Below the pieces are notes generated by a model. It saw nothing but the letters and a program-made list of their open reading frames with translations, was not told the DNA's origin and searched no databases. The translations under genes and the position numbers were made by a program. From a virus (taxonomy: Duplodnaviria; Heunggongvirae; Uroviricota; Caudoviricetes): a stretch of DNA of 13,055 nt. Each line of letters starts with the position of its first letter. Positions within the stretch are counted from its first letter, which is position 1. Positions 1-13,055 of this stretch are shown in pieces. The stretch spans positions 1-13,055 of IMG/VR virus record IMGVR_UViG_2657245664_000004. The stretch is one strand, 5' to 3'.

Positions 1-85
1 TAACGAGGCACCGAGGCGTCGCATTCTTCAGATGGTTCAACCCTTAAGTTAGCGCTTATGGGGAGAATCCCTCGCCACCTCTGAT

Positions 86-493
86 GTGTCAGGCATCCTC
101 AACGCACCCGCACTTAACCCGCTTCGGCGGGTTTTGTTTTTTCCTAGCATTCTGGTTTACAATTCGCACGCCAGCCTGAACAACTGGCACCTGCTGCGCC
201 AGCAGAGACAACCGATGGCGCACGATACCAAATTACACAATTCTGATGATTCTGCCGTCTTTGCCAGCAGGCACGGGCGGCGTTCCCGCACTTTCAAATC
301 TGACTGGTTCCAGCATCCCCCATGCACTGAAGAACAGGCCGAGTGGCTAATTCAGTGCTACCGCAGACACGGATACGAGATTAAGAAAGCCCTCAGCCTC
401 GATTATCGTCACTGGATAATCTCCGTCAGGCTTCCTTACTCCGAGCGCCCACCGCGTCCGTCCCGCACATTCCAGCAACGCATCTGGAGGTAA
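86..493 (+). CDS. Hypothetical nin-region protein; start uncertain (GTG 86, or ATG 215 giving 93 aa)
   Basis: Open frame from the track. A strong intrinsic terminator hairpin (116-142) lies inside the 5' end if GTG 86 is used, so the in-frame ATG at 215 is the more plausible start. No recognisable family. Ends 1 nt before the next gene. Confidence 0.3.
   Translation: MSGILNAPALNPLRRVLFFPSILVYNSHASLNNWHLLRQQRQPMAHDTKLHNSDDSAVFASRHGRRSRTFKSDWFQHPPCTEEQAEWLIQCYRRHGYEIKKALSLDYRHWIISVRLPYSERPPRPSRTFQQRIWR
116..142 (+). terminator. Rho-independent terminator (nin-region tR2-like)
   Basis: Perfect 7-bp stem AACCCGC / GCGGGTT with TTCG tetraloop, followed by TTGTTTTTT. Confidence 0.5.
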
Positions 494-494
494 C

Positions 495-1544
495 GTGCGG
501 GTATTACTTCGACCTGTTCTGGTACCGGAACTCGGGCTGGTGATCGTTAAGCCGGGCCGTGAATCCATGCCGGTATTCCACAATACCCGGGTACTGGTGG
601 AGCCGGAACCGAAAAGCATGCGTAATCTGCCGTCCGGGGTTGTTCCTGCCGTTCGCCAGCCGCTAGTGGAAGACAAAACATTGCTGCCGTTTTTCAGTAA
701 CGCACGGGTGATTCGTGCTGCTGGTGGTGCTGGTGCATTGTCTGACTGGCTGTTGCGCCATATTAAATCCTGCCAGTGGCCACACGGCGATTATCATCAC
801 AGCGAAACCGTCATTCACCGTTATGGTACCGGCGCAATGGTGTTGTGCTGGCACTGCGACAACCAGCTGCGTGACCAGACATCCGAATCACTCGAGCAAC
901 TTGCTCATCAAAACCTGTCAGCATGGATGATTGACGTCATCGGTCACGCAATAAGCGGTACGCAGGAGCGTGAATTATCTTTGGCTGAATTATCCTGGTG
1001 GGCGGTCCGCAATCAGGTGGCGGACGCGCTACCGGAAGCGGTATTACGTCGTTCGCTGGGGTTGCGTGCAGAAAAAATCCGCTCAATGTACCGTGAAAGC
1101 GACATCGTACCGGGAGAGCAGACCGCCACCAGCATACTGAAACAGCGCACAAAAAATCTTGCGCCGCTGCCTCACGCCCACCAGCAACAGAACCCACCAC
1201 AGGAAAAGACGGTGGTCAGCATTGCCGTTGATCCTGAGTCTCCGGAATCTTTCATGAAACGACCTAAACGTCGCCGCTGGGTTAACGAGAAATACACACG
1301 CTGGGTGAAGACACAGCCGTGTGCGTGTTGTAGTAAGCCAGCCGACGATCCCCATCACCTGATTGGTCATGGTCAGGGCGGAATGGGAACAAAATCCCAC
1401 GATATTTTCACGCTACCGCTGTGTCGGGAGCATCACAACGAGCTTCATGCGGATCCGCTGGCGTTCGAAGAAAAGCATGGTTCTCAGGTTGATTTAATTT
1501 TTCGTTTTCTTGATCACGCCTTTGCAACCGGCGTGCTTGGGTAA
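495..1544 (+). CDS. DUF968 / YdfU-like prophage protein with C-terminal HNH-like Cys/His motif
   Basis: 349-aa ORF, the length I recall for E. coli Qin prophage YdfU. C-terminal CACCSKPADDPHHLIGHGQGG...CREHHNELH is an HNH/zinc-binding-like pattern. Sits upstream of rusA and Q as in lambdoid nin regions. GTG start. Confidence 0.7.
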   Translation: MRVLLRPVLVPELGLVIVKPGRESMPVFHNTRVLVEPEPKSMRNLPSGVVPAVRQPLVEDKTLLPFFSNARVIRAAGGAGALSDWLLRHIKSCQWPHGDYHHSETVIHRYGTGAMVLCWHCDNQLRDQTSESLEQLAHQNLSAWMIDVIGHAISGTQERELSLAELSWWAVRNQVADALPEAVLRRSLGLRAEKIRSMYRESDIVPGEQTATSILKQRTKNLAPLPHAHQQQNPPQEKTVVSIAVDPESPESFMKRPKRRRWVNEKYTRWVKTQPCACCSKPADDPHHLIGHGQGGMGTKSHDIFTLPLCREHHNELHADPLAFEEKHGSQVDLIFRFLDHAFATGVLG

Positions 1545-1556
1545 AAGGGGTTACTG

Positions 1557-1931
1557 ATGCGTATAGAGTTTGTTTTGCCTTACCCGCCGACGGTGAACAC
1601 CTACTGGCGACGTCGTGGCAGCACATATTTTGTATCAAAAGCCGGTGAGCGTTATCGCCGTGATGTGGCGCTTATTGTTCGCCAGCAGCGACTGAAATTA
1701 AATCTGTCCGGAAGGCTGGCGATCAGGATTATTGTGGAGCCACCGGATAAGCGTCGTCGCGACCTGGACAATATCCTGAAAGCACCGCTGGATGCGCTGA
1801 CGCATGCGGGAGTGTTAATGGACGATGAGCAGTTTGATGAAATCAATATCGTTCGTGGTCAGCCAGTATCTGGTGGACGTCTGGGGGTGAAGATTTACCC
1901 CATAATGCATGAAGAGCAGGTCAAAAAATGA
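1557..1931 (+). CDS. rusA: RusA-family Holliday junction resolvase
   Basis: 124-aa product with the conserved RusA core (PDKRRRDLDNILKAPLDALTHAGVLMDDEQ) as recalled from E. coli/phage 82 RusA. SD AAAGGGG before the ATG. Stop overlaps the Q start (ATGA). Confidence 0.85.
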   Translation: MRIEFVLPYPPTVNTYWRRRGSTYFVSKAGERYRRDVALIVRQQRLKLNLSGRLAIRIIVEPPDKRRRDLDNILKAPLDALTHAGVLMDDEQFDEINIVRGQPVSGGRLGVKIYPIMHEEQVKK

Positions 1932-2749
1932 AACTGGAAGATTTACCGAAATACTACTCCCCAAAATCCCCTTGCCTGACCGATGCATCGGCCTCAACGT
2001 CAAAAGATGCGCTGAGTATCACTGATGTGATGGCCGCGCAGGGCATGACACAGAATCGGGCTGAGATGGGATTTTCTGCGTTCCTGGGGAAAATGGGCAT
2101 CAGTATGAATGACAGGGCGCGGGCAACAGAATTACTGGCAGATTATGCACTCAGTCGGTGCGATCGTGTGGCGGCGTTGAGAAAACTTCCGGCAGAAATA
2201 AAACCGGTAGTGATGCGCATTATGGCTTCGTACGCTTTTGAGGATTATGCCCGCAGCGCAGCGAGTAAAAAGCAGTGCCCTTGTTGCTATGGGGAAAAAT
2301 TTATTGAAAGCGTAGTTTTTACAAACAAGGTCCAGTATCCGGATGGTAAGCCGCCGGTATGGGCAAAGTGTACGAAAGGTGTGTATCCGTCTTACTGGGA
2401 AGAATGGAAAAAAGTCAGGGAGGTGGTAAAAGTTGCCTGTCCGGAGTGTGGCGGAAAGGGTGAGGTTTCCACCGCCTGTAAGGATTGCCGTGGGCGTGGT
2501 GTCGCCATTCACCGTGAAGAGTCGGTAAAACGTGGTATGCCTGTTATCAGAGACTGCCAGCGTTGTGGTGGTCGTGGCTATGAAAGACTACCATCAACGG
2601 AGGTATTTAATGCTATATGCGAGGTGACAAACCAGATAACACGCGCGTCATGGGAAAAAACAGTTAAGAAATTCTATGATGCGCTGGTGACCCGGTTTGA
2701 TATTGAAGAAGCATGGGCTGAGCGGCAGTTAAAAAAGGTAACTAGGTAA
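1928..2749 (+). CDS. Q: Late-gene antiterminator Q (Q82-like, Phage_antitermQ family)
   Basis: 273-aa ORF immediately upstream of a pR'-like promoter and tR'. Three DnaJ-type CxxCxGxG zinc-finger motifs (CPECGGKG, CKDCRGRG, CQRCGGRG). Position after rusA is typical for lambdoid Q. Confidence 0.8.
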   Translation: MKLEDLPKYYSPKSPCLTDASASTSKDALSITDVMAAQGMTQNRAEMGFSAFLGKMGISMNDRARATELLADYALSRCDRVAALRKLPAEIKPVVMRIMASYAFEDYARSAASKKQCPCCYGEKFIESVVFTNKVQYPDGKPPVWAKCTKGVYPSYWEEWKKVREVVKVACPECGGKGEVSTACKDCRGRGVAIHREESVKRGMPVIRDCQRCGGRGYERLPSTEVFNAICEVTNQITRASWEKTVKKFYDALVTRFDIEEAWAERQLKKVTR

Positions 2750-2754
2750 CAAGG

Positions 2755-2782
2755 TTGATTTTTCCGGAATCTGTGGTAAATT
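2755..2782 (+). promoter_or_regulatory. Late promoter pR'-like (-35 TTGATT, extended -10 TGgTAAATT); qut site expected to overlap
   Basis: TTGATT at 2755-2760, 16-bp spacer, TG-n-TAAATT at 2774-2782. TAAATT is the lambda pR' -10 hexamer. Located directly after the Q stop. Confidence 0.5.
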
Positions 2783-2830
2783 CGTCATAACGATGGGCGT
2801 TTTATGCCTGGCGTTAGAAGAGTTTCTACA

Positions 2831-2856
2831 ACCCGCCGCTGAGCGGGTTTTTTATT
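2831..2856 (+). terminator. tR'-like intrinsic terminator of the late transcript
   Basis: Stem CCCGC / GCGGG (plus flanking A-T pair), loop CGCTGA, then TTTTTTATT. About 50 nt downstream of the predicted start site. Confidence 0.6.
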
Positions 2857-2892
2857 GCGAAATTAATTACGGACCGTTATTATTCTGCTCCC

Positions 2893-2968
2893 GGCCCTTT
2901 AGCTCAGTGGTGAGAGCGAGCGACTCATAATCGCCAGGTCGCTGGTTCAAATCCAGCAAGGGCCACCA
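2893..2968 (+). tRNA. ileZ: tRNA-Ile2 (anticodon CAT, lysidine type; ileZ-like)
   Basis: Cloverleaf folded by hand: acceptor GGCCCTT / AAGGGCC, D-arm GCTC/GAGC, anticodon loop CTCATAA, T-arm GCTGG-TTCAAAT-CCAGC, encoded CCA end. Resembles E. coli ileX rather than tRNA-Met. Same Q-downstream location as ileZ in Stx phages. Confidence 0.85.
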
Positions 2969-3069
2969 TCACAAACCGCCATTAGCTTATCAGGAAGAGC
3001 AGACGACACGATAACAGGGTTGTTGGTGCGGGGGGCGGGTCCCCGATGGCGGTCCATTATCGGTATTCA

Positions 3070-3146
3070 GCGTTGTTAGCTCAGCCGGACAGAGCAATTG
3101 CCTTCTAAGCAATCGGTCACTGGTTCGAATCCAGTACAGCGCGCCA
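3070..3146 (+). tRNA. tRNA-Arg (anticodon TCT, reads AGA/AGG; argO/argN-like)
   Basis: Acceptor GCGTTGT / ACAGCGC (one G-U pair), D-arm GCTC/GAGC, anticodon stem ATTGC/GCAAT with loop CTTCTAA, T-arm ACTGG-TTCGAAT-CCAGT, encoded CCA. Confidence 0.85.
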
Positions 3147-3256
3147 TATTCATTCTTCCAGATTCCTTCCGGCAGAGCCTTATACTGAAATATACCTGGC
3201 TCAGGATATTGTTGAAAATATTATATGTTTGTCAAAAATAAAAGTTCTGTTAAGTA

Positions 3257-3610
3257 TTGATTGAATATTTGTTATACGGTCTAATGGTTTTTTCAGCATT
3301 AAATATTTATCATTCATATGGTGTGGGTAGAGTGAATATTGATGAGGCGTCGGGGTGTTTCATCCTTAGGCAGCGTATTGATATAGTCAATGCAGCACGA
3401 GCAAAGGCCTTCAGCCGTTTGACAGTTTTGTTCTGTACTCCTGATCGTCTTTCGGGAAGAGACGTTATTATTCTGAATAGTGATGCTATACAGAGGGTTT
3501 GCGATGAGTTCATGGTTGCTAATTCAGAATTATTTGCTCTTGTTCAGGAGTACAACAGAATAGCCAGGACCTGTGGTATGGATGAACTTCGGATTACTCA
3601 TCTGGGGTAG
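3257..3610 (+). CDS. Hypothetical protein in the stx-equivalent cargo position; start uncertain (TTG 3257 or ATG 3284)
   Basis: Only long ORF between the tRNAs and the terminator at 4002. No good SD and no recognisable family. Confidence 0.35.
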   Translation: MIEYLLYGLMVFSALNIYHSYGVGRVNIDEASGCFILRQRIDIVNAARAKAFSRLTVLFCTPDRLSGRDVIILNSDAIQRVCDEFMVANSELFALVQEYNRIARTCGMDELRITHLG

Positions 3611-4001
3611 ATACATATCTGGATTATCACCTGTTACGGTAAAAAGTGATTGCTTACTGTTTTTGTGAATGGCATTGCAGCAGCCGGATAATGTCAGTGC
3701 TGGCTGACGGTGTGCTGGTGGCGGGTGTGGTGGTTGTTGCTTTCCCGTTGCTGAAAAAGAAAACGCCAGACTGTTAGCCGGGTATCAGTTAGCGGGAGAA
3801 ATTTTTAAATACTTCACAATTCAGGCGGTTGACTGTTGTCTGGTTTGCGGGGAGTTTGTTAAAAGAAACTGGCATGGTGAATCCCCCTGTGCGGTGGGGC
3901 AATCAGCGAGTAGGTATATGGGATAATCGCGGATTCAGGTGCTGGTACTGAATTCACCGGGAGGCACCCGACACCATGCAATGGCACATAGCGCCACTCT
4001 C

Positions 4002-4031
4002 CAGCCCCTCTCCGGAGGGGCTGTTTATATT
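4002..4031 (+). terminator. Rho-independent terminator
   Basis: Perfect 9-bp stem CAGCCCCTC / GAGGGGCTG with TCCG loop, followed by TTTATATTGATTTT. Lies just 3' of the convergent minus-strand ORF. Confidence 0.55.
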
Positions 4032-4057
4032 GATTTTGTCAGATGTGAGTAAACTCC

Positions 4058-4393
4058 TTATGGACTTTGTTGTTTTAGTCCATAAGGACATATTTGCAGA
4101 GTGCAACGGTTATTAAAGCATTCATTCAATACGTTATCTGTATTTGTAGGGCATTCCTGGCTGTTTTTGATTAAATTCCAGAATGTTTTATTGAATGGTA
4201 CTACGTTGTAAATGGTTACAGGTAGCACTTTGTTATTGAGCATGATGCCTGTGTGAGTCAGTGTAAATATACTTTCAGGAGGTAAGAAAGCATCCGATTG
4301 ATACCAGATTATTAATTTTATTTTACTCCATATGACTGAAAAAGATATTCCGCATGATGGCTGGATAACTGTATCAATCACAATCCACTTCAT
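4058..4393 (-). CDS. Hypothetical AT-rich cargo protein (111 aa, C-terminal Cys-containing region)
   Basis: Minus-strand ORF with good SD (AAGGAAAGTAA-ATG). Much more AT-rich than the phage backbone. Four Cys in [26 protein letters not shown]. Divergent AT-rich intergenic region 4394-4637 is suited to promoters. Confidence 0.55.
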
Positions 4394-4652
4394 TTACTTT
4401 CCTTGTTTATGCCTTGCTGGTGATGTTCTGAAAAGTATAAATGATATTTTTGAATTAAACCATAGAGCAGAATTATTTTTCTGATGTTGTTTATTGTTTA
4501 TTTAAATACAGGGTGGTTTATATCTCGTCTTGTAGTTTATCCATGCATATCTGCTTGATAATCAGGTTTTTATTTAAGGTATGGTTTTGTGTTTTTTCTG
4601 TATTACATGTCAGGTATTTTAAAGAATTATTTTTCAGATGGTGGAAAGAACC

Positions 4653-4841
4653 ATGGCATTTAAACACTATGATGTTGTCAGGGCGGCGCCGCCGTCAGAT
4701 CTTGCGGAAAAGCTGACACATAAACTGAAAGAGGGCTGGCAGCCGTTTGGTAGTCCGGTGGCCATAACCCCTTATACCCTGATGCAGGCGATTGCAGCAG
4801 AAGGTGATGTGGTGGTCAGCGGTGCAACTGAGCCGGAGTGA
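4653..4841 (+). CDS. Small conserved lambdoid-prophage protein upstream of the lysis cassette (possibly DUF1737-type)
   Basis: ORF MAFKHYDVVRAAPPSDLAEKLTHKLKEGWQPFGSPVAITPYTLMQ... preceded by GGAAAGA SD. An in-frame ATG at 4638 is an alternative start. Family name is from memory and not verified. Confidence 0.5.
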   Translation: MAFKHYDVVRAAPPSDLAEKLTHKLKEGWQPFGSPVAITPYTLMQAIAAEGDVVVSGATEPE

Positions 4842-5084
4842 TACTACGTCATCGTACTGGCCCGGCATTCCAGGCCATAAAAGACAGTCTGGCAGTGGGA
4901 CTAAATACACTGACGCTGACGGATATTACCAAAAATGCAACGTATGGCGTTGAGATAGAAAGTCTGGTGCTGGAGATAAATGCACCGGCATCATCATAAA
5001 AAGTGAGCCAGTCAAATGGAAGGTATCGTTAAACTCACCGGTAGTGTCAGTGGGTCGTCTGAGACGCTTGCATGAGTTATCAGA

Positions 5085-5116
5085 GCCATCAGTAGTTAAC
5101 TGGTGGCTTTTTTATT
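5085..5116 (+). terminator. Putative intrinsic terminator upstream of the holin gene
   Basis: 8-bp stem GCCATCAG / CTGGTGGC (one G-U pair), 7-nt loop, then TTTTTTATT. Confidence 0.4.
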
Positions 5117-5148
5117 GTTGTCAGCTTCCGGATAACGGGAGACGGGGT

Positions 5149-5364
5149 ATGGACCAGATGGAAAAAATCACAACAGGTGTGTCATACACCACGTCAGCGG
5201 TGGGAACGGGCTACTGGTTCCTGCAGTTGCTGGACAGGGTTTCCCCGTCTCAGTGGGCGGCAATAGGCGTGCTGGGGAGTCTGCTGTTTGGGCTGCTGAC
5301 ATATCTGACTAACCTGTATTTCAAAATCAGAGAGGACCGTCGTAAGGCTGCACGGGGAGAGTAA
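5149..5364 (+). CDS. S: Class II holin (phage 21 S-like pinholin) with dual start
   Basis: 71-aa product [26 protein letters not shown]...[17 protein letters not shown] closely resembles S21 as recalled. Two TM segments. Met1 and Met4 give the antiholin/holin dual-start arrangement. SD GGGAGA upstream. Confidence 0.85.
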
Positions 5365-5368
5365 TTCA

Positions 5369-5719
5369 ATGACTCAAAACTATGAACTGATTGTGAAAGG
5401 GATCCGCAATTTTGAGAATAAAGTTACGGTAACTTTAGCGTTACGGGACAAAAAACGCTTTGACGGTGAAATTTTTGACCTGGACATCTCGCTGGACCGT
5501 GTTGAAGGTGCCGCGCTGGAGTTTTATGAGGCAGCAGCCAGAATGAGCATCAGACAGGTCTTCCTGGATGTTGCTGCCGGGTTATGTGAAGGGGATGAGC
5601 AGTCGCCGGAAAAGCGCCCCGTAATTTTAGAGGCGCAGAATGTATGGATAACCTACAAAGGAAAGCTACCGGGAAGAATTACTGGTTCTCTGAAGACTCC
5701 TCCGGAATCACAACCTTAA
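5369..5719 (+). CDS. Uncharacterized protein encoded between holin and endolysin (possibly YdfR/DUF1327-like)
   Basis: 116-aa ORF with strong SD (GGGGAGAG) starting 5 nt after the holin stop. No TM or signal peptide. Qin prophage ydfR occupies the same S-to-R position; homology not verified. Confidence 0.55.
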   Translation: MTQNYELIVKGIRNFENKVTVTLALRDKKRFDGEIFDLDISLDRVEGAALEFYEAAARMSIRQVFLDVAAGLCEGDEQSPEKRPVILEAQNVWITYKGKLPGRITGSLKTPPESQP

Positions 5720-5782
5720 GTCACTGACCGGAACAGATAAACCTGTCCGTGGGCAGAAACCGATAAATCCTGATAAATATCC

Positions 5783-6316
5783 ATGAACGCAAAAATCAGA
5801 TACGGCCTGTCGGCTGCCGTTCTGGCACTGATTGCCGTCGGTGCGCCCGCGCCTGATATTCTCGACCAGTTTCTGGATGAAAAAGAAGGTAACCACACAA
5901 CGGCATACCGCGATGGGTCCGGCATCTGGACCATCTGTCGGGGTGCCACGATGGTGGATGGAAAACCCGTTTTTCCCGGTATGAAACTGTCGAAGGAAAA
6001 ATGCGACCAGGTCAACGCCATTGAGCGTGATAAGGCGCTGGCATGGGTGGAGCGCAATATTAAAGTACCACTGACCGAACCACAAAAAGCGGGTATAGCG
6101 TCATTCTGTCCCTATAACATTGGCCCCGGTAAGTGTTTCCCGTCGACGTTTTATAAGCGGCTGAATGCCGGTGATCGTAAGGGCGCATGCGAGGCGATTC
6201 GCTGGTGGATAAAAGATGGTGGGCGCGATTGCCGCATACGTTCAAATAACTGCTATGGACAGGTTATTCGTCGTGACCAGGAAAGCGCATTAGCCTGTTG
6301 GGGGATAGAGCAGTGA
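5783..6316 (+). CDS. R: SAR endolysin (GH24 lysozyme, R21-like)
   Basis: N-terminal Gly/Ala-rich weakly hydrophobic segment ([17 protein letters not shown]) consistent with a signal-arrest-release domain. Catalytic E-x8-D-x5-T pattern ([18 protein letters not shown]). Pairs with the pinholin. Confidence 0.85.
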
Positions 6317-6774
6317 GCAGAGTCGCCGCGATTATTTATGCTTTGGTTATCTGCATCATCGTCTGCCTGTCGTGGGCGGTCAATCATTACCGTGATAACG
6401 CCATCGCCTACAAAGAACAGCGTGATAAAAAAGTCAGTGAGCTGAAGCAGTCGATCGCCACCATCGCTGACATGCAGCAGCGTCAGCGTGATGTTGCTGC
6501 ACTCGATGCAAAGTACTCGAGAGAATTAGCCAATGCGAAAGCTGAAAATGAAACTCTGCGCGCTGATGTTGCCGCTGGTCGTCGTCGGTTGCACATCAAA
6601 GCAGTCTGTCAGTCAGTGCGTGAAGCCACCACCGCCTCCGGCGTGGATAATGCAACCAGCCCCCGACTGGCAGACACCGCTGAACGGGATTATTTCACCC
6701 TCAGAGAGAGGCTGATCACTATGCAAAAACAACTGGAAGGAACCCAGAAGTATATTAATGAGCAGTGCAGATAG
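6313..6774 (+). CDS. Rz: Rz i-spanin
   Basis: GTG start overlapping the endolysin stop. N-terminal TM then coiled-coil region. Near-identical to lambda Rz as recalled (…[21 protein letters not shown]). Confidence 0.85.
6533..6715 (+). CDS. Rz1: Rz1 o-spanin (outer-membrane lipoprotein embedded in Rz, +1 frame)
   Basis: 60-aa ORF wholly inside Rz. Lipobox LVVVGC and proline-rich stretch PPPPPAW. Matches lambda Rz1 as recalled. Confidence 0.85.
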
Positions 6775-6805
6775 AGCTGCCCATATCGATGGGCAACTCA
6801 TGCAA

Positions 6806-7099
6806 TTATTGTGAGCAATACACACGCGCTTCCAGTGGAGTATAAATGCCTAAAGTAATAAAACCGAGAAATCCATTTACGAATGTTTGCTGGGTTTCTG
6901 TTTTAACAACATTTTCTGCGCCGCCACAAATTTTGGCTGCATCAACAGTTTTCTCCTGTCCAATTCCCGAAACGAAGAAATGATGGGTGATGGTTTCCTT
7001 TGGTGCTACTGCTGCCGGTTTGTTTTGAACAGTAAACGTCTGTTGAGCACATCCTGTAATAAGCAGGGCCAGCGCAGTAGCGAGTAGCATTTTTTTCAT
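6806..7099 (-). CDS. bor: Bor lipoprotein (serum-resistance, Bor/Iss family)
   Basis: 97-aa minus-strand ORF MKKMLLATALALLITGCAQQTFTVQNKPAAV... essentially identical to lambda Bor as recalled. Lipobox LITGC. Confidence 0.9.
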   Translation of the reverse strand: MKKMLLATALALLITGCAQQTFTVQNKPAAVAPKETITHHFFVSGIGQEKTVDAAKICGGAENVVKTETQQTFVNGFLGFITLGIYTPLEARVYCSQ

Positions 7100-7307
7100 G
7101 GTGTTATTCCCGATGCTTTTTGAAGTTCGCAGAATCGTATGTGTAGAAAATTAAACAAACCCTAAACAATGAGTTGAAATTTCATATTGTTAATATTTAT
7201 TAATGTATGTCAGGTGCGATGAATCGTCATTGTATTCCCGGATTAACTATGTCCACAGCCCTGACGGGGAACTTCTCTGCGGGAGTGTCCGGGAATAATT
7301 AAAAACG

Positions 7308-7808
7308 ATGCACACAGGGTTTTTACCGCGTTTATGGTTCGCGGGTTTGTCTCTCATGCTCCCCGTTCTGCTGCTTGGTTCTTCACGTTACGTGGTTGTC
7401 TCCTTTACCCGGAAGATCTGGAGCGCGTCACGCAGATTATTAATGGTGGGAAAAACGGCATTAAAGACCGCCGTGAACGTTACGTCAAAGCTAAAGCCGC
7501 ATTGGTGTGAGGTCTATGTGGGAATTGAAATGATTGTCGGCCTGATTGCTGCCTTGCTGGCAGTAATAGCCGGTGCTTTTGGTCTGGGTAAATCTCGCGG
7601 TGCAAGTATCGCTGAGACAAAAGCGAACCAGCAACGCACTAAAGAACGTGCAACTGCTACTGAAGTCGTTGCAATACGCCGGGTAGAAACAACAAAAGGA
7701 GCCTGGGATGTACAGCAGATTGTTAATCATCTTCCTGATGGCGATGTTGACCGTGAGTTGCGCGAAAGATTTACCCGAAAAAACTGCAGTAACAGACACG
7801 GCTTGTGA
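7308..7808 (+). CDS. Putative envelope/membrane protein (lambda p78 / YbcV-like position); start uncertain
   Basis: ORF in the bor-to-cos interval where lambda and DLP12 carry a putative envelope protein. The C-terminal two-thirds (from MIVGLIAALLAVIAGAFGLGKS..., ATG about 7530) looks like a small TM protein; the N-terminal 70 aa are less protein-like. 3' end overlaps the next ORF by about 100 nt. Confidence 0.4.
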   Translation: MHTGFLPRLWFAGLSLMLPVLLLGSSRYVVVSFTRKIWSASRRLLMVGKTALKTAVNVTSKLKPHWCEVYVGIEMIVGLIAALLAVIAGAFGLGKSRGASIAETKANQQRTKERATATEVVAIRRVETTKGAWDVQQIVNHLPDGDVDRELRERFTRKNCSNRHGL

Positions 7809-7923
7809 CTGGGTGAACATCATCTACCTCACTGAGCACGATATTACCGTGCAGGATAAGCAGACGAAGCGGGACATATTGGCGCATAACAAATCAGTGC
7901 AGGCTAACTGTAGAATGTATTGA
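7708..7923 (+). CDS. Putative small lipoprotein (lambda p79 / YbcW-like position)
   Basis: 71-aa ORF with a signal-peptide-like N-terminus ending in a marginal lipobox (LTVSC). Start may be an internal Met. Confidence 0.4.
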   Translation: MYSRLLIIFLMAMLTVSCAKDLPEKTAVTDTACDWVNIIYLTEHDITVQDKQTKRDILAHNKSVQANCRMY

Positions 7924-8076
7924 AACTAATACTTTTGTAAGCGAATGTGTGTAAGTGCGACATGGTTGTGTGTTTTATCTAAGAATTGTTTTGCCGTAAA
8001 AGAGCATTTTGTGGTTGTAAAAAATGTGGGGAACTCGCTATAGTTCAGCCATAGAAAGCAGCTTTTCATTTTTTTT

Positions 8077-8097
8077 AAGCCTCATTTGAGGCTTTTT
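8077..8097 (+). terminator. Rho-independent terminator upstream of the cargo cassette
   Basis: Stem AAGCCTC / GAGGCTT, loop ATTT, then TTTTT. Insulates the cassette from read-through of the lysis/bor region. Confidence 0.5.
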
Positions 8098-8123
8098 GCA
8101 CATTTAGAAATTGAGTAAATGGC

Positions 8124-8161
8124 ACATATAGTGTTTTCAGTGTTAAAAAAACACTATATGT
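8124..8161. promoter_or_regulatory. 14-bp perfect inverted repeat (candidate operator or 5' stem-loop) in the cassette promoter region
   Basis: ACATATAGTGTTTT (8124-8137) and AAAACACTATATGT (8148-8161) are exact reverse complements around a 10-nt spacer. Contains a TATAGT -10-like hexamer. Ends 25 nt before the ATG at 8186. Confidence 0.45.
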
Positions 8162-8185
8162 AGCACTACAATAGGAGATTCCACT

Positions 8186-8386
8186 ATGAGCCCGGCTGAG
8201 TTCTACGATTTCTATGGCATTAAACCTGCAGAGATGATGACTGGAGAAACTGTTAACAACTTTGCTTCCAGGGTACTTGCTCAACAAACGAGTACGAGTG
8301 GTAGTACCGGCGTTTGGTACTCTCAAGGTACTGCAGCGCAGGCTAAGCAAAATCAAAGTACACATCATCAACTTTACACCTACTAA
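8186..8386 (+). CDS. Hypothetical small protein (66 aa), first gene of the cargo cassette
   Basis: Strong SD AGGAG 8 nt before the ATG. Soluble, with a Ser/Thr/Gln-rich C-terminal half. Stop is 5 nt before the next ATG, suggesting translational coupling. AT-rich relative to the backbone. Confidence 0.6.
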   Translation: MSPAEFYDFYGIKPAEMMTGETVNNFASRVLAQQTSTSGSTGVWYSQGTAAQAKQNQSTHHQLYTY

Positions 8387-8391
8387 ACACC

Positions 8392-9294
8392 ATGCCTAAT
8401 TGGAGTGACGTACTGGGCGAGATGACGGCTCTCGCCCAGAAGAGTCCGATGGATGAGGTTCGCCGTAAATATTTATTACAACTGTCTAATCACACTGGAA
8501 GAAATGTAATTACATATTATTCCGGATGGTTGCAACATGGTGGTGCAGAAGTCCGACATCTCACCCTGATGACAGATGATGATAAAAATGGATTAATGAC
8601 TGTTATTAATGGTTTAGATGTTACAAAGGGGGTGGATTTAATATTACATACCCCTGGAGGTGATATCGCTGCCTTAGAGTCTATTGGTCATTATCTGCGT
8701 TCTAAGTTTGGGACTGATATCAGAGCTATCGTTCCTATGATTTCAATGTCATGTGGTACCATGCTTGCGTGCTGTGCTAATGAAATCATAATGGGTAAAC
8801 AGTCCAATATTGGCCCGATTGACCCTCAGTTTAATGGATTTTCTACACATGCTATTATTGAGGAATGGAATAGAGCTCAGGCGGAAATTTTTAACAATCC
8901 AGCAGCTGTGCAAATGTGGCAGTTTATACTTCAGAAACTCAACCCCACTATTATCGGAGAGTGTGAAAAAGCTATCCAATGGGCGAATGAGATTGTCAAG
9001 CACTGGCTTATGACGGGTATGTTTGCAAATGATCCGGAGTCAGAAACAAAAGCAACTCATGTATGCTCAGAGCTGAACAATCATCATACAACTTACACTC
9101 ATTCGAGACATATCCATTTCGATAAAGCTCAGAAAATTGGATTGAATGTTACAGAACTGGAAAGTGATCAAGTCCTCCAGGATTTGGTTTTGACCATACA
9201 TCACAGTTACATGCACTCGTTTGGTGGAGCCCCGATCGCAAAGATCATAGAAAACCATAATGGGAATGCTATGATTTGGAATATGCAATCGTAA
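8392..9294 (+). CDS. ClpP/crotonase-fold serine peptidase (S49 / SDH-proteinase-like)
   Basis: 300-aa ORF with motifs typical of ClpP-clan S49/SDH peptidases: LILHTPGGD..., a candidate nucleophile Ser in VPMISMSCGTMLACCANEIIMG, and NIGPIDPQ. Family assignment is by motif recognition, not a search. Confidence 0.65.
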   Translation: MPNWSDVLGEMTALAQKSPMDEVRRKYLLQLSNHTGRNVITYYSGWLQHGGAEVRHLTLMTDDDKNGLMTVINGLDVTKGVDLILHTPGGDIAALESIGHYLRSKFGTDIRAIVPMISMSCGTMLACCANEIIMGKQSNIGPIDPQFNGFSTHAIIEEWNRAQAEIFNNPAAVQMWQFILQKLNPTIIGECEKAIQWANEIVKHWLMTGMFANDPESETKATHVCSELNNHHTTYTHSRHIHFDKAQKIGLNVTELESDQVLQDLVLTIHHSYMHSFGGAPIAKIIENHNGNAMIWNMQS

Positions 9295-9317
9295 GAACCT
9301 ATTTACACACCATATTA

Positions 9318-9341
9318 GCCTCGCAGTAGCGGGGCTTTTTT
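9318..9341 (+). terminator. Rho-independent terminator downstream of the cargo cassette
   Basis: Stem GCCTCGC / GCGGGGC (one G-U pair), loop AGTA, then TTTTTTAT. Followed by lambda-like right-end sequence. Confidence 0.6.
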
Positions 9342-9429
9342 ATGCGCATCGCACGCGCACATCAAAGAGAGTCTTTCAGTAATGATTCTGGATATCATAG
9401 CTATAAATACAATTGATAGTTATTTTCAT

Positions 9430-9654
9430 TTTGGCGGGTCCTTTCCGGCGATCCGACAGGCTACGGGGCGGCGACCTCGCGGGTTTTCGCTATTTATGAA
9501 AATTTTCCGGTTTAAGGCGTTTCCGTTCTTCTTCGTCGTAACTTAATGTTTTTATTTAAAATACCCCCTGAAAAGAAAGGAAACGACAGGTGCTGAAAAC
9601 GAACTTTTGGGCCTCTGTCGTTTCCTTTCTCTGTTTTTGGCCGTGGAATGAACA
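9430..9654. other. cos: cos site (cosQ-cosN-cosB); cosN 12-nt cohesive end GGGCGGCGACCT at 9466-9477
   Basis: Exact lambda cohesive-end sequence at 9466-9477. Flanking sequence matches the lambda right-end/left-end junction as recalled, with a few substitutions. cosB-type inverted repeat GAAAGGAAACGACAG ... CTGTCGTTTCCTTTC precedes Nu1. Confidence 0.85.
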
Positions 9655-10200
9655 ATGGAAGTCAACAAAAAGCAGCTGGCTGACATTTTCGGTGCGAGTA
9701 TCCGTACCATTCAGAACTGGCAGGAACAGGGAATGCCCGTTCTGCGAGGCGGTGGCAAGGGTAATGAGGTGCTTTATGACTCTGCCGCCGTTATAAAATG
9801 GTATGCCGAAAGGGATGCTGAAATTGAGAACGAAAAGCTGCGCCGGGAGGTTGAAGAACTGCGCCAGGCCAGCGAGGCAGATCTCCAGCCAGGGACTATT
9901 GAGTACGAACGCCATCGACTTACGCGTGCGCAGGCCGACGCACAGGAACTGAAGAATGCCAGAGACTCAGCTGAAGTGGTGGAAACCGCATTCTGTACTT
10001 TCGTGCTGTCGCGGATCGCAGGTGAAATTGCCAGTATTCTCGACGGGATCCCCCTGTCGGTGCAGCGGCGTTTTCCGGAACTGGAAAACCGACATGTTGA
10101 TTTCCTGAAACGGGATATCATCAAAGCCATGAACAAAGCAGCCGCGCTGGATGAACTGATACCGGGGTTGCTGAGTGAATATATCGAACAGTCAGGTTAA
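9655..10200 (+). CDS. Nu1: Terminase small subunit Nu1
   Basis: 181-aa product MEVNKKQLADIFGASIRTIQNWQEQGMPVLRGGGKGNEVLYDSAAVIKWYAERD... matches lambda Nu1 essentially residue for residue as recalled, including the N-terminal winged-HTH. Confidence 0.95.
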   Translation: MEVNKKQLADIFGASIRTIQNWQEQGMPVLRGGGKGNEVLYDSAAVIKWYAERDAEIENEKLRREVEELRQASEADLQPGTIEYERHRLTRAQADAQELKNARDSAEVVETAFCTFVLSRIAGEIASILDGIPLSVQRRFPELENRHVDFLKRDIIKAMNKAAALDELIPGLLSEYIEQSG

Positions 10201-11353
10201 CAGGCTGCGGCATTTTGTCCGCGCCGGGCTTCGCTCACTGTTCAGGCCGGAGCCACAGACCGCCGTTGAATGGGCGGATGCTAATTACTATCTCCCGAAA
10301 GAATCCGCATACCAGGAAGGGCGCTGGGAAACACTGCCCTTTCAGCGGGCCATCATGAATGCGATGGGCAGCGACTACATCCGTGAGGTGAATGTGGTGA
10401 AGTCTGCCCGTGTCGGTTATTCCAAAATGCTGCTGGGTGTTTATGCCTACTTTATAGAGCATAAGCAGCGCAACACCCTTATCTGGTTGCCGACGGATGG
10501 TGATGCCGAGAACTTTATGAAAACCCACGTTGAGCCGACCATCCGCGATATTCCGTCGCTGCTGGCGCTGGCTCCGTGGTATGGCAAAAAGCACCGGGAT
10601 AACACGCTCACTATGAAGCGTTTTTCCAATGGTCGTGGCTTCTGGTGCCTGGGCGGTAAAGCGGCAAAAAACTACCGTGAAAAGTCGGTGGATGTGGCGG
10701 GTTATGATGAACTTGCTGCCTTTGATGAGGATATTGAACAGGAAGGCTCTCCGACGTTCCTTGGCGACAAACGTATTGAAGGCTCGGTCTGGCCAAAGTC
10801 CATCCGTGGCTCCACGCCCAAAGTGAGAGGCACCTGCCAGATTGAGCGTGCAGCCAGTGAATCCCTGCATTTTATGCGTTTTCATGTTGCCTGCCCGCAC
10901 TGCGGGGAGGAGCAGTATCTTAAATTTGGCGACAAAGAGACGCCGTTTGGCCTCAAATGGACGCCGGATGACCCCTCCAGCGTGTTTTATCTCTGCGAGC
11001 ATAATGCCTGCGTCATCCGCCAGCAGGAGCTGGACTTCACTGATGCCCGTTATATCTGCGAAAAGACCGGGATCTGGACCCGTGATGGCATTCTCTGGTT
11101 TTCGTCATCCGGTGAAGAGATTGAGCCGCCGGACAGCGTGACCTTTCACATCTGGACGGCGTACAGCCCGTTCACCACCTGGGTGCAGATTGTCAAAGAC
11201 TGGATGAAAACGAAAGGGGATACGGGAAAACGTAAAACCTTCGTAAACACCACGCTCGGTGAGACATGGGAAGCGAAAATCGGCGAACGTCCGGATGCTG
11301 AGGTGATGGCGGAGCGGAAAGAGCATTATTCAGCGCCCGTTACAACACGCTGA
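10175..11353 (+). pseudogene. A: Terminase large subunit A, N-terminal about 388 codons only (truncated by deletion)
   Basis: Start overlaps the Nu1 3' end as in lambda. Matches lambda gpA from MNISNSQVNRLRH... to ...ERKEHYSAPV, then diverges and stops (TTR*). Lambda gpA is 641 aa. Confidence 0.85.
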
Positions 11354-12597
11354 TGGCGGCGGCGAAAAAGGATTATGAAGCGACGCTGAAAAAGCCGAAA
11401 CAGTCCGGCGTGAAGGTGTCTGCGGGCGATCGTCAGGAAGACAGTGCTCATGCTGCCCTGCTGACGCTTCAGGCAGAACTCCGGACGCTGGAGAAGCATG
11501 CCGGAGCAAATGAGAAAATCAGCCAGCAGCGCCGGGATTTGTGGAAGGCGGAGAGTCAGTTCGCGGTACTGGAGGAGGCGGCGCAACGTCGCCAGCTGTC
11601 TGCACAGGAGAAATCCCTGCTGGCGCATAAAGATGAGACGCTGGAGTACAAACGCCAGCTGGCTGCACTTGGCGACAAGGTTACGTATCAGGAGCGCCTG
11701 AACGCGCTGGCGCAGCAGGCGGATAAATTCGCACAGCAGCAACGGGCAAAACGGGCCGCCATTGATGCGAAAAGCCGGGGGCTGACTGACCGGCAGGCAG
11801 AACGGGAAGCCACGGAACAGCGCCTGAAGGAACAGTATGGCGATAATCCGCTGGCGCTGAATAACGTCATGTCAGAGCAGAAAAAGACCTGGGCGGCTGA
11901 AGACCAGCTTCGCGGGAGCTGGATGGCAGGCCTGAAGTCCGGCTGGAGTGAGTGGGAAGAGAGCGCCACGGACAGTATGTCGCAGGTAAAAAGTGCAGCC
12001 ACGCAGACCTTTGATGGTATTGCACAGAATATGGCGGCGATGCTGACCGGCAGTGAGCAGAACTGGCGCAGCTTCACCCGTTCCGTGCTGTCCATGATGA
12101 CAGAAATTCTGCTTAAGCAGGCAATGGTGGGGATTGTCGGGAGTATCGGCAGCGCCATTGGCGGGGCTGTTGGTGGCGGCGCATCCGCGTCAGGCGGTAC
12201 AGCCATTCAGGCCGCTGCGGCGAAATTCCATTTTGCAACCGGAGGATTTACGGGAACCGGCGGCAAATATGAGCCAGCGGGGATTGTTCACCGTGGTGAA
12301 TTTGTCTTCACGAAGGAGGCAACCAGCCGGATTGGCGTGGGGAATCTTTACCGGCTGATGCGCGGCTATGCCACCGGCGGTTATGTCGGTACACCGGGCA
12401 GCATGGCAGACAGCCGGTCGCAGGCGTCCGGGACGTTTGAGCAGAATAACCATGTGGTGATTAACAACGACGGCACGAACGGGCAGATAGGTCCGGCTGC
12501 TCTGAAGGCGGTGTATGACATGGCCCGCAAGGGTGCCCGTGATGAAATTCAGACACAGATGCGTGATGGTGGCCTGTTCTCCGGAGGTGGACGATGA
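11353..12597 (+). pseudogene. H: Tail tape-measure protein H, C-terminal about 414 codons (fragment fused behind truncated A)
   Basis: Matches the C-terminal half of lambda gpH as recalled (...KKDYEATLKKPKQSGVKVSAGDRQ... to ...MRDGGLFSGGGR). The H reading frame is open from 11302 but has no upstream counterpart. The whole head module and most tail genes are absent between A and H. Confidence 0.85.
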
Positions 12598-12923
12598 AGA
12601 CCTTCCGCTGGAAAGTGAAACCCGGTATGGATGTGGCTTCGGTCCCTTCTGTAAGAAAGGTGCGCTTTGGTGATGGCTATTCTCAGCGAGCGCCTGCCGG
12701 GCTGAATGCCAACCTGAAAACGTACAGCGTGACGCTTTCTGTCCCCCGTGAGGAGGCCACGGTACTGGAGTCGTTTCTGGAAGAGCACGGGGGCTGGAAA
12801 TCCTTTCTGTGGACGCCGCCTTATGAGTGGCGGCAGATAAAGGTGACCTGCGCAAAATGGTCGTCGCGGGTCAGTATGTTGCGTGTTGAGTTCAGCGCAG
12901 AGTTTGAACAGGTGGTGAACTGA
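12594..12923 (+). CDS. M: Minor tail protein M
   Basis: 109-aa product MKTFRWKVKPGMDVASVPSVRKVRFGDGYSQRAPAGLNANLKTYSVTLSVPREE... matches lambda gpM as recalled. Start overlaps the H stop. Confidence 0.9.
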   Translation: MKTFRWKVKPGMDVASVPSVRKVRFGDGYSQRAPAGLNANLKTYSVTLSVPREEATVLESFLEEHGGWKSFLWTPPYEWRQIKVTCAKWSSRVSMLRVEFSAEFEQVVN

Positions 12924-13055
12924 TGCAGGATATAGCGGTCCGGCGGTCGCGGATGAATATGACCAGCCGACGTCCGATATCACGAAGGATAAATGTCAGC
13001 AATGAAATAACACAGACCGTCAATAAGAAACTGGAAGACCAGAGTGCGGCAATCC
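12923..13055 (+). pseudogene. Collapsed tail-gene remnants: L start codons fused to an internal L segment, then a probable J C-terminal fragment
   Basis: ATGCAGGATAT (lambda L start, MQDI) runs directly into DNA encoding SGPAVADEYDQPTSDITKDKC (internal L) in another frame. This is followed by ...NEITQTVNKKLEDQSAAI, which resembles lambda J C-terminal sequence from memory. Confidence 0.55.

Follow-up and report, generated by a model that had tools for sequence, protein, structure and literature searches.

A lambdoid late-control module and a gene for a 92-residue protein at the stx position of an Escherichia coli prophage

We analyzed the interval between the antiterminator gene Q and the lysis genes in a 13,055-nucleotide stretch of viral DNA (IMG/VR record IMGVR_UViG_2657245664_000004, positions 1 to 13,055), which is referred to as the window. 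The window is part of an E. coli lambdoid prophage, and positions 2700-4500 are 100% identical to several complete E. coli chromosomes. Its gene order was taken from open reading frame (ORF) predictions, from scans for protein families and from the annotation that RefSeq gives to an identical stretch. A preliminary description of positions 2750-3610 had listed Q, a late promoter pR', a terminator tR', the transfer RNAs (tRNAs) tRNA-Ile2(CAU) and tRNA-Arg(UCU), and an ORF at 3257-3610. All of these elements were present, in that order and on the plus strand. Comparison of homologues indicated that the ORF contains a real, selected gene for a protein of 92 residues, located where Shiga toxin (Stx) phages carry the toxin genes. 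The features of the region are as follows.

1928-2749, plus strand: Q antiterminator gene, 273 residues (PF03589 Antiterm, 183 bits; phrog_127)
2755-2782, plus strand: late promoter pR' (-35 TTGATT at 2755-2760, a 16-nt spacer ending in TG, -10 TAAATT at 2777-2782)
2789-2797, plus strand: -10-like element AACGAT followed by GGG (AACGATGGG), at the predicted transcript start and matching lambda
2830-2853, plus strand: intrinsic terminator tR' (7-bp stem with 5 G-C pairs at 2830-2849, 6-nt loop and T run; terminator scan and RNA fold)
2855-2883, plus strand: promoter-like site TTGCGA-17-TATTAT (9 of 12 consensus matches), directly before ileZ
2893-2968, plus strand: ileZ, tRNA-Ile2 with anticodon CAU (ARAGORN; Rfam, 72.5 bits; RefSeq tRNA-Ile)
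2976-3056, plus strand: degenerate argN, a pseudo-tRNA (alignment to argN(TCG) of phage Lahn2)
3070-3146, plus strand: argO, tRNA-Arg with anticodon UCU (ARAGORN; Rfam, 68 bits)
3147-3331, plus strand: A+T-rich spacer with 30% G+C, including a non-conserved 5' extension of the ORF
3332-3610, plus strand: gene for the 92-residue protein, GTG start and TAG stop (phrog_2873; substitution pattern; only open frame)
3646-3777, plus strand: gene for a small hydrophobic DUF3927 peptide, TciB-like (PF13064, 95.6 bits; phrog_1470)
3843-4032, plus strand: STnc100 small RNA (sRNA) gene (Rfam RF02076, 123 bits, gathering score 47); a dedicated terminator lies at 4002-4023

The late-control module and the tRNA block

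The late antitermination module is of the lambdoid type, with Q upstream, a pR' bearing a pause-like element and tR' all in place; promoter activity and pausing are predictions from the sequence. The -35 hexamer begins six bases past the Q stop codon. The likeness to the lambda pR'/6S RNA/Q module comprises the -10 hexamer, the element at the transcript start, the spacing between them, a full-length Q homologue and an intrinsic terminator. The 21-nt pattern TAAATT-N6-AACGATGGG is the same in the window and in lambda pR', where it reads TAAATT-tgactc-AACGATGGG (L025 776-796). Among the 25 loci compared, it occurred only in lambda and in L001, a locus 100% identical to the window over 2700-4500. 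In lambda, the -10-like element causes a sigma-70-dependent pause at which Q loads. A generic promoter scan with a threshold of 9 of 12 consensus matches missed pR' because it scores 8 of 12, one under the threshold.

The two modules also differ. The window Q, which is 98.5% identical to that of phage mEp460_ev081, is 66 residues longer than lambda Q and shares 28.5% identity with it over the full length (tblastn, E 4e-28). The spacer between the -35 and -10 hexamers, where lambda Q binds, has 16 nt of other sequence in the window compared with 17 nt in lambda. The terminated pR' RNA would be about 65 nt (approximately 2789-2853), taking the first A of AACGAT as +1 as in lambda, compared with 194 nt for the lambda RNA. 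Among the IMG/VR loci that carry the module, the -35 hexamer, spacer and -10 hexamer of pR' are near-invariant, with single substitutions in a few of them. The pause hexamer is polymorphic among near-identical modules (L027-L106), reading AACGAT in 34, AATGAT in 11, AATAAT in 6, AACTAT in 5 and AACAAT in 2; change is confined to positions 3 and 4, and positions 1, 2, 5 and 6 are kept throughout. This polymorphism could reflect tuning of pause strength or of Q loading. The loop of tR' varies among related loci, and its stem is kept.

In Stx phages, termination of the pR' transcript yields StxS, a regulatory sRNA (PMC7547250). By analogy, a constitutive pR' with tR' close behind would free a short RNA in lysogens of the window prophage as well. 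However, the predicted RNA is much shorter than StxS-L, for which a 74-nt 3' fragment and a cut at +173 give about 247 nt by arithmetic (PMC7547250), and we claim no sequence kinship between the two. The stretch from pR' to tR' (2782-2853, plus strand) also gave a sub-threshold Rfam match to isrK, a Salmonella family of Hfq-binding sRNAs, in the same position as the short RNA (16.6 bits, E 0.87, gathering score 50). This match is probably due to chance.

Two intact tRNA genes follow. The CAU tRNA matches ileZ, as annotated in phage Lahn2, at every base and carries C4:G69 and C5:G68, pairs that serve as TilS determinants; argO is a single base apart from its Lahn2 counterpart. The tRNAs of this block would supply decoders for AUA and AGA/AGG. 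The preliminary description had counted only two tRNAs, separated by a 101-bp spacer that does not fold as a tRNA. The count stood, since ARAGORN found no tRNA in the spacer and Rfam found none at E values up to 1, and the spacer was accordingly rejected as a functional or unusual tRNA. Its sequence is not arbitrary, however, but that of an argN in decay: it can be aligned with argN(TCG) of Lahn2 in the acceptor stem, in the D arm and at the 3' end, with unrelated sequence in place of the anticodon arm and a mutated T loop. The P27 copy has the same replaced anticodon arm, and the T-loop consensus has additionally been lost in the window copy relative to that of P27. As a reference for ileZ, argN and argO of phage 933W, we relied on the GenBank annotations of Lahn2, P27 and phi296. 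The TTGCGA-17-TATTAT site ahead of ileZ is kept in Lahn2, O43 RM10042 and P27, and 70 of 71 IMG/VR loci, with three different upstream contexts among them, retain its TATTAT hexamer; the site is a possible promoter for the tRNA block.

The resemblance to Stx phages proposed in the preliminary description was borne out. The order Q, pR', tR', ileZ-argN-argO and cargo is that of Stx phages, among which the Stx2e phage P27 is the closest single example, and in both the cargo is followed by lysis genes of the same orientation. Across the tRNA block (ileZ, the 101-nt degenerate argN and argO), identity between the window and P27 is 92%, and the similarity collapses directly past the 3' end of argO. 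In P27, stxA2e begins 90 nt after argO; the gene for the 92-residue protein therefore occupies the stx position, and the cargo of both starts approximately 90-190 nt past argO. A RefSeq record with 100% identity to the window over 2700-4500 carries no stx annotation in this region. The cargo itself is different: the window has the gene for the 92-residue, predicted helical protein, DUF3927 and STnc100, whereas Stx phages have stxAB. The layouts also diverge upstream, since Q and pR' abut the tRNAs in the window and three genes, including one for a DNA methylase, separate Q from the tRNAs in P27. Stx2a phages are more distant, with a tRNA block 83-88% identical to that of the window, another Q allele, and similarity that begins only at 2853.

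The gene for the 92-residue protein

In the window the frame is open from 3257 to 3610, which corresponds to the ORF of the preliminary description. Homologues with approximately 60% protein identity occur in three other E. coli prophage lineages (of the L008/L011 and L010/L022 types). In L008, L010 and L011, the 25-codon extension back to TTG 3257 contains stop codons, and all three homologues begin at the same GTG, followed by AAT ATT GAT GA. The ratio of nonsynonymous to synonymous substitution rates (dN/dS, Nei-Gojobori) was 0.26 in all four pairwise comparisons, over 92 codons with zero indels, and differences by codon position numbered 24, 22 and 44. Among six frames tested, only that of the gene is free of stops in five lineages, down to 38% identity. 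The gene is intact in 80 of 80 IMG/VR loci that carry the window-type allele; these loci hold 12 alleles, in which six polymorphic sites are synonymous and four nonsynonymous. Its G+C content is 44%, compared with 30% in the upstream spacer. Because of the shared GTG, the dN/dS ratio, the sole open frame and the intact copies, we place the coding sequence at 3332-3610. The coding status assumed in the preliminary description thus held, and its 5' end was too long, the conserved start giving 92 residues rather than 117.

We considered whether the product might be longer, with 117 residues from TTG 3257 or 108 from ATG 3284, the latter as in PHROG 2873 and many gene callers. The window frame is open from 3254, the 26 codons ahead of the GTG are open in 76 of 80 close relatives, the phrog_2873 profile has 108 positions and matches from the ATG, and the extension is likewise open, and partly similar, in the diverged copies P0014 and P0015. 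Against this, the extension is stopped in L008, L010 and L011, which share the GTG, the NCBI annotation of the L010 variant is a hypothetical protein of 92 residues, a Shine-Dalgarno AGGAG lies 5 nt ahead of the GTG of variants L010 and L022, and the extension, at 28% G+C, continues the A+T-rich spacer. We therefore regard a longer product as quite improbable. A chance open frame in non-coding late-region DNA, where an RNA or DNA element would be conserved instead, would fit the lack of annotation in the RefSeq and phage records examined and the GTG start and weak ribosome-binding site of the window variant. This explanation is effectively refuted by the substitution pattern, and it would not account for a 92-codon length kept without indels at approximately 60% protein identity, for the single frame that stays open in five lineages, for homologues recognized by profile in six genera or for a confident AlphaFold model. 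A gene on the opposite strand, either at 3310-3513 or as the 117-nt minus-strand gene of mEp460_ev081, was rejected on account of stop codons in homologues.

The preliminary description had called the product unknown. It indeed has no assigned function, but its family is on record: the protein matches phrog_2873 end to end (E 5.6e-58), and relatives have been deposited as hypothetical proteins. All of nine diverse family members matched phrog_2873, and eight also matched phrog_4827, which is the weaker match; neither family has an annotated function, and the 108 positions of the PHROG 2873 profile include the non-conserved N-terminal extension. Searches of Pfam, NCBIfam and PADLOC with the 92-residue product gave no matches. 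A profile search of 1.84 billion representative proteins returned 20 clusters, none of them named, and a second profile search added relatives from Salmonella, Serratia, Morganella and Xenorhabdus, all hypothetical. The family is small and confined to Enterobacterales (Escherichia/Shigella, the Citrobacter freundii complex, Salmonella, Serratia, Morganella and Xenorhabdus).

The prediction for the product is a soluble protein folded as an antiparallel two-helix hairpin. Long antiparallel helices at residues 3-34 and 50-81 are present in both of two AlphaFold models, which have predicted local distance difference test (pLDDT) values of 85 and 88, and the short turn between the helices bears a conserved TPDR motif. 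The isoelectric point is calculated as 5.7, and the model is predicted to contain no membrane-spanning segment. From this model, the product probably acts through contact with a partner protein, in the form of a small helical-bundle oligomer, and not as an enzyme. Structure searches with the model returned only generic helical hairpins and designed bundles, none of them informative, and the idea of a binding protein is therefore drawn from shape. Kinship with GapR/UPF0335 (DUF2312) was rejected; a PDB sequence-profile match at E 0.05 was judged to be chance, and there was no significant similarity in sequence or fold.

Distribution and genomic setting

The window-type allele or a relative is present in 1314 of 5426 complete E. 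coli genomes (approximately 24%), and at least 80% of 2700-4500 is present in 863 of them. By comparison, the gene was found in only 1 of 50,697 phage records, that of mEp460_ev081, and its context was therefore drawn from bacterial genomes and IMG/VR. The gene occupies the Q-to-lysis interval, in the orientation of the lysis cassette, in the E. coli variants, Citrobacter, Serratia and Morganella, and the holin gene often follows immediately. Distant family members also lie outside this interval (L111 and L112, 5001-5276; L019, 105-425; L020, 478-798; L113, 5001-5333). Those in Mu-like elements belong to the tail operon and immediately precede the DNA-circularization gene, and a further relative was found next to a PapB/usher fimbrial operon on a Rep3 plasmid-like contig.

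Upstream context was scored in the 74 IMG/VR loci with enough upstream sequence. Both ileZ and argO precede the gene in 66 of them, and the distance from the start of ileZ to the GTG is 435-443 nt in nearly all of these. Three unrelated kinds of sequence precede ileZ: the Q/pR'/tR' module, the terminal part of a DNA methylase gene (the P27 arrangement) or an AraC-type regulator. On the other side, the gene for DUF3927, a very small hydrophobic peptide whose sequence includes MSVLADGVLVAGVVVVAFPLLKKKTPDC, is downstream in 76 of 80 loci and in Citrobacter-type loci as well, and STnc100 is downstream in 72 of 80. The tRNAs, the gene for the 92-residue protein, DUF3927 and STnc100 thus move as a block. 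According to a 2026 preprint (10.64898/2026.05.13.724894), STnc100 is related to the PasD sRNAs, whose genes are reported to lie near PF03589 Q genes. A close relative of the module in phage vB_EcoS-640R1 (L002, 3194-3660) is without argO and the gene for the 92-residue protein and retains only fragments of DUF3927. Since both genes have been lost there, the cargo can be deleted in phage-derived sequence.

The preliminary description had noted that the tRNAs decode rare codons, and the codon count agreed with a link to the cargo. The gene for the 92-residue protein has 3 AUA, 2 AGA and 3 AGG codons, or 8 of 93 (8.6%), compared with an average of 2.16% in the other 16 genes of the window (binomial P approximately 0.001). 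Homologues without adjacent ileZ and argO have 3.2%, 5.4% and 1.0% of these codons. The pattern is suggestive of co-adaptation to the tRNAs, in a comparison of four lineages only. We speculate that ileZ, the dead argN, argO, the gene for the 92-residue protein and DUF3927 form a co-adapted mobile cassette in which the tRNAs gate translation of the cargo and the helical-hairpin protein has a so far undescribed role late in infection, although we consider this proposal as a whole unlikely. If it were true, the protein would appear only under strong transcription of the cassette and, possibly together with the DUF3927 membrane peptide, might, for example, tune lysis timing, exclude superinfecting phages or block a host defense.

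The remaining genes of the window are as follows.

495-1544: DUF968
1557-1931: RusA
4058-4393, minus strand: iraM-like anti-adaptor gene (NF007393, 158 bits)
4638-4841: DUF1737
to 5364: holin
5369-5719: DUF1327
5783-6316: lysozyme
to 6774: Rz
6806-7099, opposite strand: bor
7308-7808, plus strand: ORF of 166 residues without a family match
8392-9294, plus strand: ClpP-like SDH-type serine protease (PF01972)
9655-10200: Nu1
from 10175: truncated gpA (large terminase)

The ORF is not the only cargo: DUF3927, the STnc100 sRNA and the iraM-like gene also precede the lysis genes. The iraM-like gene, which is downstream of the gene for the 92-residue protein in 47 of 80 related IMG/VR loci, sits on the opposite strand within the late operon; late transcription would therefore be antisense to it. 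The 166-residue ORF and the SDH protease gene lie in the stretch from bor to Nu1, which is nearly empty in lambda.

The prophage in the window is defective. Within 10175-12597, gpA retains its ATPase domain but only the first 69 nuclease-domain positions and adjoins, at approximately 11353, an ORF with the C-terminal end of the lambda tape-measure protein, followed by a minor tail protein gene; the head genes and most tail genes have been lost. Only one complete E. coli genome covers at least 80% of 10175-12597, and that match is not colinear.

Expression of the cargo and its meaning

In the Stx model, the pR' transcript ends at tR' unless Q acts after induction (PMC7547250). By analogy with lambda and the Stx phages, pR' of the window prophage would fire constitutively, and RNA polymerase would pause at the -10-like AACGAT. 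Without Q, transcription would stop at tR', releasing the short RNA of approximately 65 nt. Upon induction, Q would be made and would modify the paused polymerase, which would then read through tR', ileZ, the dead argN, argO, the gene for the 92-residue protein, DUF3927 and STnc100 and on into the lysis genes, while the tRNAs would be excised from the long transcript to decode AUA and AGA/AGG. Gene orientation and homology support this scheme and make Q-dependent expression of the gene plausible. Overall, we consider it probable that the region is a lambdoid late-control module with a cargo slot and that the 92-residue product is a late-expressed accessory protein.

The preliminary description had placed the ORF under expression only through Q, and this exclusivity is weakened. 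A TTGCGA-17-TATTAT site lies past tR', and a scan of 2600-5500 detected nothing resembling a terminator from argO to the gene. Transcription without Q is therefore possible in lysogens, and low-level expression of this kind is a live alternative judging from these sites. Taken further, the gene might mainly serve lysogenic conversion, transcribed in uninduced cells from the site before ileZ or from a weak promoter in the A+T-rich spacer, with Q merely adding to its expression. The position of the 2855-2883 site downstream of tR' and its retention in three unrelated upstream contexts would fit this explanation, as would the lack of terminator-like sites in the scan from argO to the gene and the relative on the Rep3 plasmid-like contig, outside a phage context. 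A benefit to the host would also be consistent with an intact gene in a prophage that has lost its head and most tail genes and with carriage by about 24% of complete E. coli genomes. However, the gene is co-oriented with and embedded in the late operon in most lineages examined, in contrast to the neighboring iraM-like and bor genes on the opposite strand. In addition, promoter-like matches across 2600-5500 occurred at the frequency of shuffled sequence (7 found, 6.6 expected), and the scan found no dedicated terminator between the gene and DUF3927. Viewed as a moron, an autonomous accessory gene flanked by a promoter and a terminator of its own, the gene shows weak promoter-like sites at chance frequency and no terminator before DUF3927, together with an atypical base composition. 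We consider a mainly lysogenic role possible but doubtful.

Several observations nevertheless weigh against a late-expressed accessory protein in a Q-controlled cargo slot. The conserved site before ileZ, with no terminator detected by the scan from argO to the gene, would allow transcription without Q, and one homologue stands on a plasmid-like contig outside any phage late operon. The window variant has a GTG start with a weak Shine-Dalgarno sequence, and the NCBI pipeline left the gene unannotated in the RefSeq records examined. The fold searches gave only generic helical hairpins, and the rare-codon contrast with tRNA-less homologues, drawn from four lineages, neither proves nor disproves co-adaptation. 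The window prophage is defective, with its terminase truncated and fused to the tape-measure end, which bears on whether it can be induced here. The case for coding and for expression of the gene is likewise one made from sequence comparison.

Much of this locus is of a known kind: the lambdoid late-control module and its cargo hot-spot are established, the cargo family is catalogued but uncharacterized, and no new regulatory principle is revealed. The useful gains are a corrected gene model, an annotation gap and a tight linkage between tRNAs and cargo. Lambdoid prophages carry and control Shiga toxin and other genes that alter the host in the interval from Q to the lysis genes. A gene that accompanies the same rare-codon tRNAs as stx in about a quarter of complete E. 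coli genomes has been largely missed by standard annotation. With another selected gene in the position of stx, such prophages offer a natural comparison for the coupling of cargo to induction.

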